A stretch of 64,000 nt of DNA, taken from NCBI GenBank assembly GCA_964016885.1, contig OZ024751.1:30752001-30816000 (forward strand). Direction: 5' to 3'. The translations under genes were made by a program, and so were the position numbers. Shown here in pieces: positions 13,771-14,800 of this stretch. Each line of letters begins with the position of its first letter. Position 1 is the first letter of the stretch. Under the pieces are notes generated by a model. The model searched no databases and was not told the DNA's origin. It worked only from the letters and a program-made list of their open reading frames with translations. This DNA comes from Eledone cirrhosa. Taxonomy: Eukaryota.

Positions 13771-14224
13771 CAGATTTGTTTTATAAATAAATATTGACAT
13801 ACCCGGAAAAAAGGACAACCTTAACAGTTGGAGCTTCCTGGATAGCTATCCAGCTATCCAGGAAGCCCCAACCGTTAAGAAGAACTGCGAAACCGGTAAA
13901 GGAACCAAATAAATATATATATATTTTTTTTAAATAAGACTCCAATAGCATTTTCGATTTCATCTCTTTTTCTTTATACTTTCACTCGTGTAGGACACCT
14001 CGGTTATTTTTCATTTTGTTAAAAAAACCTCACTTTCTAATATATATATATATATATATATATATATATATATATAGATTTTGAGTTTATGTTGGTTGTA
14101 TACCAACACCTCAGTATGCAGGCTGGAGCACTCGACGAAGTGCGCAGGTTGGTTTGGTTACTCTGGAGTAGTGTAAAATAAAGTTAAATAAAAGTCAAAT
14201 GATTAAAATTTAGCTTCGTTTATT

Positions 14225-14279
14225 ACTGCTATATATATTTCAGTGACAGCCATCTTTGGCTGTGACCTCTTCAGGCAGT
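14225..14279 (-). ncRNA. Type-I hammerhead ribozyme motif (left arm)
   Basis: Reverse complement of 14501-14555. Confidence 0.8.
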
Positions 14280-14500
14280 TTGAATTAGTATGGTATAGAC
14301 AAGTACATATGTTGTTTAGGTGTATGATATTGTCAATACTCTGATATGCCCAGTTCCTTGCTGGGTTGTTAATTCACTGGGGAACTGGAGTCATATTCCC
14401 CAGTGAATTAACAACCCAGCAAGGAACTGGGCATATCAGAGTATTGACAATATCATACACCTAAACAACATATGTACTTGTCTATACCATACTAATTCAA

Positions 14501-14555
14501 ACTGCCTGAAGAGGTCACAGCCAAAGATGGCTGTCACTGAAATATATATAGCAGT
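14501..14555 (+). ncRNA. Type-I hammerhead ribozyme motif (right arm)
   Basis: actgc CTGAAGA ggtcacagcca-aaga-tggctgtcact GAAA tatata TA gcagt, followed by AATAAA. Confidence 0.82.
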
Positions 14556-14800
14556 AATAAACGAAGCTAAATTTTAATCATTTGACTTTTATTTAACTTT
14601 ATTTTATATATATATATATATATATATATATATATATATATATATATATATATATATATATATATATATATATATATATATATATATATATATATATATA
14701 TTTATATATATATATATATATATATGTATATGTATATATATATATATATGTATCGTCCATATACTGTAGCGATCGTGTTGTTATTTCTGTTTACCTTTTA

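Follow-up and report, generated by a model that had tools for sequence, protein, structure and literature searches.

A hammerhead-bearing fold-back in a (TA)n repeat, probably the footprint of a truncated Penelope-like insertion

A palindromic insertion, located at approximately positions 14077 to 14606 of the 64-kb window (the whole stretch of Eledone cirrhosa DNA that was analysed), is very probably a dead, non-coding product of Penelope-like retrotransposon (PLE) machinery, in which two 5'-truncated copies were placed head to head within a (TA)n target. This reading follows from a tail at one end, from the (TA)n target on both sides, and from the recurrent ends and variable head-to-head joints seen in other copies; each of these adds to the suggestion of an earlier note, that the structure corresponds to the inverted pseudo-LTR (pLTR) of a Penelope insertion. 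The fold-back is most likely an instance of a published insertion pattern, that is, the footprint of a Penelope-type element, and not a designed switch.

Structure of the insertion

The two arms of the fold-back (14174-14384 and 14396-14606) are exact reverse complements of one another at 211 of 211 positions, separated by a spacer of 11 nt (14385-14395), and both contain a type I hammerhead motif, one on the plus strand (14501-14555) and its mirror on the minus strand (14225-14279, with a predicted cut between 14230 and 14229). By comparison, 100 base-shuffles of 14078-14606 yielded no perfect arm longer than 10 nt. The earlier note had described a perfect 211-bp fold-back with arms 11 nt apart and a hammerhead on each strand, which is what was found; the extent that it assigned to the structure (14174 to 14606) is correct for the arms, but the inserted unit itself runs approximately 97 nt further to the left, to around 14077, and includes the spacer as a part of the left copy. 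The surrounding window is AT-rich and populated with microsatellites, LINE fragments and a tRNA-like match, a makeup that is typical of animal DNA and may resemble that of octopus genomes.

An (AT)n run at 14040-14076, to which no strand is assigned, would represent the left part of the target site. It borders a 3' extension of approximately 97 nt (the 'tail', 14077-14173, minus strand) that belongs to the left copy and is missing from the right one; its left edge was placed at the (AT)n border, while contigs were aligned only from 14080. The left copy is the longer of the two 5'-truncated copies, extending on the minus strand from approximately 14396 to 14077, and comprises the left arm together with the spacer, which provides its 5'-most bases. 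The right arm, on the plus strand, is an inverted 5'-truncated copy that lacks the tail, and its final two bases are common to an imperfect (TA)n run (14605-14749, again without a strand) that would form the right part of the same target. At the joint between the two copies, the single base at 14396 fits either one.

Four of 23 listed sequencing runs were aligned to 14080-14606, and contigs from three of these (here X1, X4 and X6) bear upon the boundaries of the unit; the fourth, X16, a raw-read run of which approximately 1 in 100 reads was sampled, gave 0 aligned reads and carries no weight. Across the tail (14080-14169) the summed depth in X1 is 198,000-396,000, and the continuity of tail and arm is documented by X1 contig records 1-4 and by X4 record 9 (14088-14203, with one other letter). 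The left arm and spacer are covered up to 14396 by X4 records 10-11 and X6 record 23, and loose contig ends behind that position (nine in X1 and one in X4) lead into sequence that differs. Because contigs of the left arm continue through the spacer to 14396 and only then enter other sequence, the spacer corresponds to the 5' end of the left copy. At the outer side, 14 contigs whose loose ends lie before 14192 and nine whose loose ends lie behind 14588 reach into TA repeats near the end of the right arm, so that this outer end recurs within the family.

The identity of the arms had been taken to imply a recent event, and this part of the earlier description is only loosely supported: the absence of any difference in 211 positions gives an upper bound on divergence of 1.4% (95%), but five other fold-backs in the window have arms that are 98-99% identical, and conversion between arms may serve as an alternative to recency. 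Both arms also carry the same letter at 14361/14419, which in the contigs aligned to the left side accounts for approximately 4% of depth in X1, less than 1% in X6 and none in X4; the common letter at 14361 is T (108,542 of 112,950 depth in X1, 580 of 584 in X6 and 21 of 21 in X4). The sharing of this rare letter suggests that the arms were copied from one template, or were evened out later.

A high-copy family with variable joints

Part of the stretch is shared by 15 of the 23 listed runs, and half or more of it by six, under 12 organism labels; no RNA run is among these listed holders. In X1, where 2,540 contigs were aligned, the summed depth is 47,000-589,000 per bin except in the last, as compared with a depth of approximately 6-37 for individual listed contigs; the sum marks the repeat as very abundant and is not a copy number. 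When folded onto one copy, the depth is approximately 870,000 over the hammerhead and falls to 47,000 by the spacer, the pattern expected of 5' truncation, and some copies extend 5' of the spacer.

Nine other antisense-to-sense joints, also head to head but with other breakpoints, were found in X1 at depths of 4.7-23.9. The offsets between their truncation points are 2, 7, 17, 33, 40, 55, 66, 98 and 105 nt, such that three of the nine joints are offset by no more than 17 nt while six are asymmetric by 33-105 nt, and four of the nine display an overlap of 2-6 nt. All nine derive from this single run, which is possibly the assembly's own sample; no head-to-head joints are listed for X6 or X4, and the locus's own junction is spanned by none of the 24 listed contigs (2,783 further ones are not listed).

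A separate observation concerns X6, a run whose kind is not on record, in which the changes 14301 A>G and 14478 T>C reach 13-15% of depth (three contigs each) as compared with approximately 0.1% in X1. Both correspond to neighbouring antisense-strand A positions that read as G; however, a third change enriched in X6 is A>T, and the same letters also exist in X1, so that editing is not separable from a few over-represented copies.

The hammerhead motif and its predicted behaviour

The plus-strand motif comprises a 5-bp stem I (14501-14505/14551-14555), the core sequences CUGAAGA (14506-14512) and GAAA (14539-14542), a stem II of ten pairs plus one C.C mismatch (14513-14538) that is opened by a G.U pair, a self-complementary stretch of 8 nt for stem III (14542-14549), and a cleavage triplet AUA, from which a cut after 14550 is predicted. 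The long stem II had been pointed out previously (as ggtcacagcca/tggctgtcact) and is indeed there. All elements of a type I core are found (C3-U4-G5-A6-N7-G8-A9, G12-A13-A14, A15.1-U16.1 and H17), helices I and II appear in the MFE fold (z -2.8) with helix I open, and helix III is computed to form 2 bp in a monomer and 8 bp as an intermolecular palindrome. The hammerhead is thus confirmed at the level of sequence and predicted structure. Among the aligned contigs no core change at or above 10% is listed, and the G.U that opens stem II in the present copy is replaced by the usual G10.1-C11.1 pair in part of the family's depth: in X1, a C stands at position 14538 for 201,353 of 472,444 (43%), and in X6 the pair is G-C for 971 of 1,795.

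A hammerhead descriptor matched the window eight times, and matched none of 20 dinucleotide-shuffled versions of it. Rfam called none of these eight motifs and no hammerhead in this element, either at the gathering threshold or at E up to 10, where it returned only hairpin-type families under their gathering scores (the miRNA-type matches being generic hairpins); this silence probably reflects the reach of the models for minimal variants. Variation within the family gave no signal of purifying selection on the ribozyme, since two of 18 distinct variable places fall within the 55-nt motif as compared with approximately three expected by its length. A frame of 16 codons opens within stem II, as the PAc frame does, but ends at once.

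Both ribozymes point outward, and read-through from either flank would make the complement approximately 220 nt before the ribozyme itself. The full hairpin has an MFE of approximately -397 kcal/mol and the form in which the hammerhead is forced approximately -311 kcal/mol, a gap of approximately 87 kcal/mol. Because the antisense arm is made first and the gap is so large, a read-through RNA is expected to exist as a duplex and not as a two-state switch, and the ribozyme within it would be locked in 211 bp of double-stranded RNA and would not cut. Furthermore, formation of stem III inside a single molecule carries a penalty of 3.4 kcal/mol, while pairing of the palindrome between two copies yields -3.2 kcal/mol; by analogy, this palindromic stem III is of the kind that would need a second sense copy, and a transcript of the locus carries only one. 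The proposal that the RNA could either self-cleave or collapse is not supported by these values, and they leave the accompanying idea of a sequestration switch weak. A role as a source of dsRNA is plausible if the locus is transcribed, and a promoter inside the truncated pLTR could be the one remaining route to a free ribozyme.

Fold-backs and other repeats in the window

A census of 87 segments of 50-1,500 nt, situated between the (TA)n runs of the window, found an inverted pair in 15, as compared with six of 87 in a mirror control, all of which appeared simple-repeat-like by eye. Six of the 15 were dropped (four with arms of 27-34 nt, one composed only of AT and one with a 465-nt spacer), leaving nine with arms of at least 59 nt and 90-100% identity. 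Spacers are no longer than 15 nt in seven of these nine; four place one arm on (TA)n and carry a tail of 60-97 nt on the other side; and three, namely the present element and two others from different families, bear a hammerhead core on each strand.

At 57898-58211, a fold-back with 119 of 121 matching positions and no spacer carries a hammerhead of another family on each strand (hammerhead-bearing part 57898-58142), with (TA)n at its left and a 69-nt tail followed by a TA repeat at its right. An inverted pair of 268 nt (99%) with a 187-nt spacer occupies 59046-59806; its hammerhead-bearing part (59084-59806) has a long-stem-II hammerhead on each strand, the plus-strand copy with a mismatch in stem I, and has 17 nt around the core in common with the element at 14077-14606. 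A fourth hammerhead family is represented by three copies, at 8239-8600, 13675-13820 and 34580-34780 (cores at 8346 on the minus strand, 13762 on the minus strand and 34673 on the plus strand), the first of which is a fold-back whose second arm begins within stem II.

Directly adjoining the element, the segment at 14751-15913 contains an inverted pair of approximately 300 nt (97%) around a further fold-back (15102-15291, 94 of 95 positions, with a 60-nt tail), so that palindromic insertions lie nested and clustered there among TA/TG repeats; the descriptor finds no hammerhead in them. A family of short fold-backs with a shared tail lies beside (TA)n at 1914-2155, 28065-28121, 45610-45780 and 45836-46033; by eye, one of its copies has an apparent hammerhead 3' half (GAAA, stem III and GUC) with no CUGANGA nearby. 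The fold-back at 48375-48589 (99 of 100 positions, 15-nt spacer) is immediately flanked by (TA)n at either end, lacks a tail and contains an inverted repeat of its own; it might have arisen as a MITE and not through PLE activity. Beyond these palindromes, the tRNA-like sequence at 12833-12903 (minus strand, Rfam score 48.5 bits), which is followed by a repeat that is found again at 16209-16485, is probably the head of a tRNA-derived SINE; LINE-type fragments at 5898-7475 and 62375-63999 (both minus strand) include a 526-aa AP endonuclease frame together with RVT_1/zf-RVT pieces; and a frame of 444 codons at 17067-18398 (plus strand), with a repeat-driven DM13 score in Pfam, overlies a 48-nt tandem array of approximately 24 copies that is likely a minisatellite.

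Origin of the insertion

In the proposed mechanism, a GIY-YIG endonuclease would cut the (TA)n run, and the pLTR end of an element RNA would be reverse-transcribed for approximately 320 nt before synthesis stops. A second, inverted copy, which ends at the inner of two fixed 3' ends and is truncated 11 nt earlier, would then be joined to it head to head. This could arise by twin priming on one RNA (or on RNAs from one source copy), with both cut target strands priming cDNA from two fixed sites approximately 97 nt apart, both syntheses stopping at nearly the same place, and the resulting cDNA ends being joined with an overlap of approximately 1 nt. Alternatively, the first cDNA might fold back and prime itself, after which the other target end would be captured. 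In vitro, the PLE protein of Anolis cuts and extends both strands of its target, and it begins reverse transcription from two internal positions by which the tail is delimited (PMC11167929). Those two RT start sites would correspond well to the pair of fixed 3' ends in the present family, and twin priming is for that reason favoured, at slightly better than even within the PLE explanation; fold-back self-priming, with which the near-zero spacers and a joint with a 6-nt overlap are consistent, would account for somewhat under half. By either route the hammerhead would be a passenger of the pLTR.

Assignment to the PLEs would be made on four structural features: (i) a 5' truncation with an inverted copy at the 5' end; (ii) a pLTR bearing a minimal type I hammerhead, as defined in PMC4209133; (iii) the optional 3' tail at one end (14077-14173); and (iv) an AT-rich or microsatellite target, with (TA)n on both sides here and TA repeats at the ends of other copies. 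One flank by itself would be weak, since a (TA)n run is found no more than 10 nt to the left of 17% of randomly chosen positions in the window. Counting against the assignment are the length of the tail, the six asymmetric joints, and the lack of a linked RT or GIY-YIG frame. With regard to the last, a Pfam search of 150 of the 178 filtered window frames found no PLE RT or GIY-YIG frame, as would be expected for a truncated copy, and returned only the AP-endonuclease and LINE-type RVT_1 pieces. Six-frame translation of the element and 11 sister regions revealed no recognisable piece of a PLE protein by eye, and a coding parent was sought in metagenome contigs by two exact-pattern scans, with 0 matches.

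The absence of a coding frame from a short and very abundant unit with a type I hammerhead would also suit a dedicated non-autonomous family, retrozyme- or SINE-like and a few hundred nucleotides long, which would have no coding parent, would be moved in trans by PLE proteins, and would produce the palindrome as an insertion by-product; retrozymes have in fact been proposed to derive from pLTRs (10.64898/2026.07.22.740005). This is improbable, since retrozymes are described as canonical motifs in tandem repeats (PMC7229834), whereas no match to the arm longer than 19 nt exists elsewhere in the window, the combination of a long stem II with a short stem I corresponds to the minimal PLE type (PMC4209133), and some copies continue 5' of the spacer; the tandem 150-450-bp hammerhead repeats of a retrozyme were set aside because the window contains no direct copy. 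A MITE or foldback DNA transposon, whose termini would be long inverted repeats inserted at a TA target, would explain the inverted arms and the TA context, but is scarcely credible given the hammerhead, the one-sided tail, the centres that differ among copies and the fall of depth toward the centre; the unequal ends and variable centres, in place of equal and fixed ends, led to its rejection.

An artefact of assembly or of a fold-back read would produce perfect arms, and might seem to be favoured both by the junction that no listed contig spans and by the best run, in which 0.87 of 31 sampled words, and not all, are present. It is nevertheless very unlikely, because the mirror stops where other family copies also end, excludes the tail and the differing flanks, is accompanied by sister fold-backs with arms of 90-99% identity (unlike a copied read), and has similar joints in contigs of another data set, even if that run may come from the assembly's own sample. 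Selection for the hairpin, either as a switch that sequesters the ribozyme or as a locus kept for its dsRNA, is judged equally unlikely. The predicted 211-bp duplex of a read-through RNA, the antisense small RNAs that PLE families give in a rotifer (PMC3846280), and an internal promoter that could make RNA free of its upstream complement would all speak for it; against it stand the order of the arms and the energy gap described above, the recurrence of the same shape in unrelated families of the window, the lack of any sign of conservation at the locus, and the report that a single minimal PLE hammerhead gives no detectable cleavage in vitro, with weak activity in dimers (PMC4209133, PMC6765202). 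An insertion by PLE machinery, presumably inactive in vivo, remains the preferred explanation.

Significance

The single locus matters little, as its shape is published and recurs within the window; its value is as one sample in a large natural data set. Only the longer tail and the density of fold-backs go beyond the cited papers. If joint offsets, overlaps, tails and shared private letters were tallied across the genome, twin priming might be told apart from fold-back priming, and any such loci in transcribed regions would be ready-made long dsRNA. A bolder and rather unlikely proposition is that head-to-head Penelope-type insertions are dense enough in this genome (64 kb contain nine long fold-backs, drawn from several families without relation to one another) to be a main source of the near-perfect dsRNA hairpins that feed ADAR editing and small RNAs, and that their thousands of joints record a 'one RNA, two primers' route, with both target strands priming at two fixed sites and stalling together; if true, the formation of inverted pLTRs would become testable from genome data alone.

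Comparison with known systems

Among the general features described for PLEs are (TA)n targets, inverted copies with 5' truncation, and a tail confined to one end (PMC8557442, PMC8969392), and inverted pLTRs with an optional tail, mostly arranged head to head, were reported in PMC3846280, where fold-back self-priming was proposed for rotifer elements; the origin of these inverted pLTRs is called unresolved in PMC8557442 and PMC11167929. No account of this particular family was found in the literature covered, and the family may already be catalogued in repeat libraries or in supplements, which may hold cephalopod or other families of its kind; the relevant text on a squid genome gives hammerheads only as counts (PMC6962438).

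The truncated insertions of Penelope/Poseidon, Neptune and Nematis (PMC3846280, PMC8557442) resemble the present element in their head-to-head inverted copy of approximately 200 bp, their tail at one end, their 5' truncation, the short overlap at the joint, and an AT-rich simple-repeat target with no discernible target duplication in (TA)n. They differ in their tails, which are 30-40 bp in length as compared with approximately 97 nt here, and this copy of the element is without a coding part. Naiads share the bias toward (TA)n but, as described in the same sources, lack canonical hammerheads. Non-LTR retrozymes (PMC7229834) are likewise short, abundant and non-coding repeats of animal-type genomes with a type I hammerhead, but the element is inverted and non-tandem, and its ribozyme is minimal rather than canonical.

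The closest correspondence is to the minimal hammerheads of metazoan PLEs (PMC4209133), which are also of type I, with a 5-bp helix I, a long helix II, a short palindromic helix III and a full core. Helix II has ten pairs in the element as compared with seven to eight in the Schistosoma families of that study, opens with a G.U, and in the pairing used here directly adjoins the core, with no additional unpaired base. The same work described pairs of minimal hammerheads on opposite strands, 100-700 bp apart, and ascribed most dispersed motifs to truncated PLEs; the two cores of the present fold-back, at a distance of 232 nt, lie within that range.
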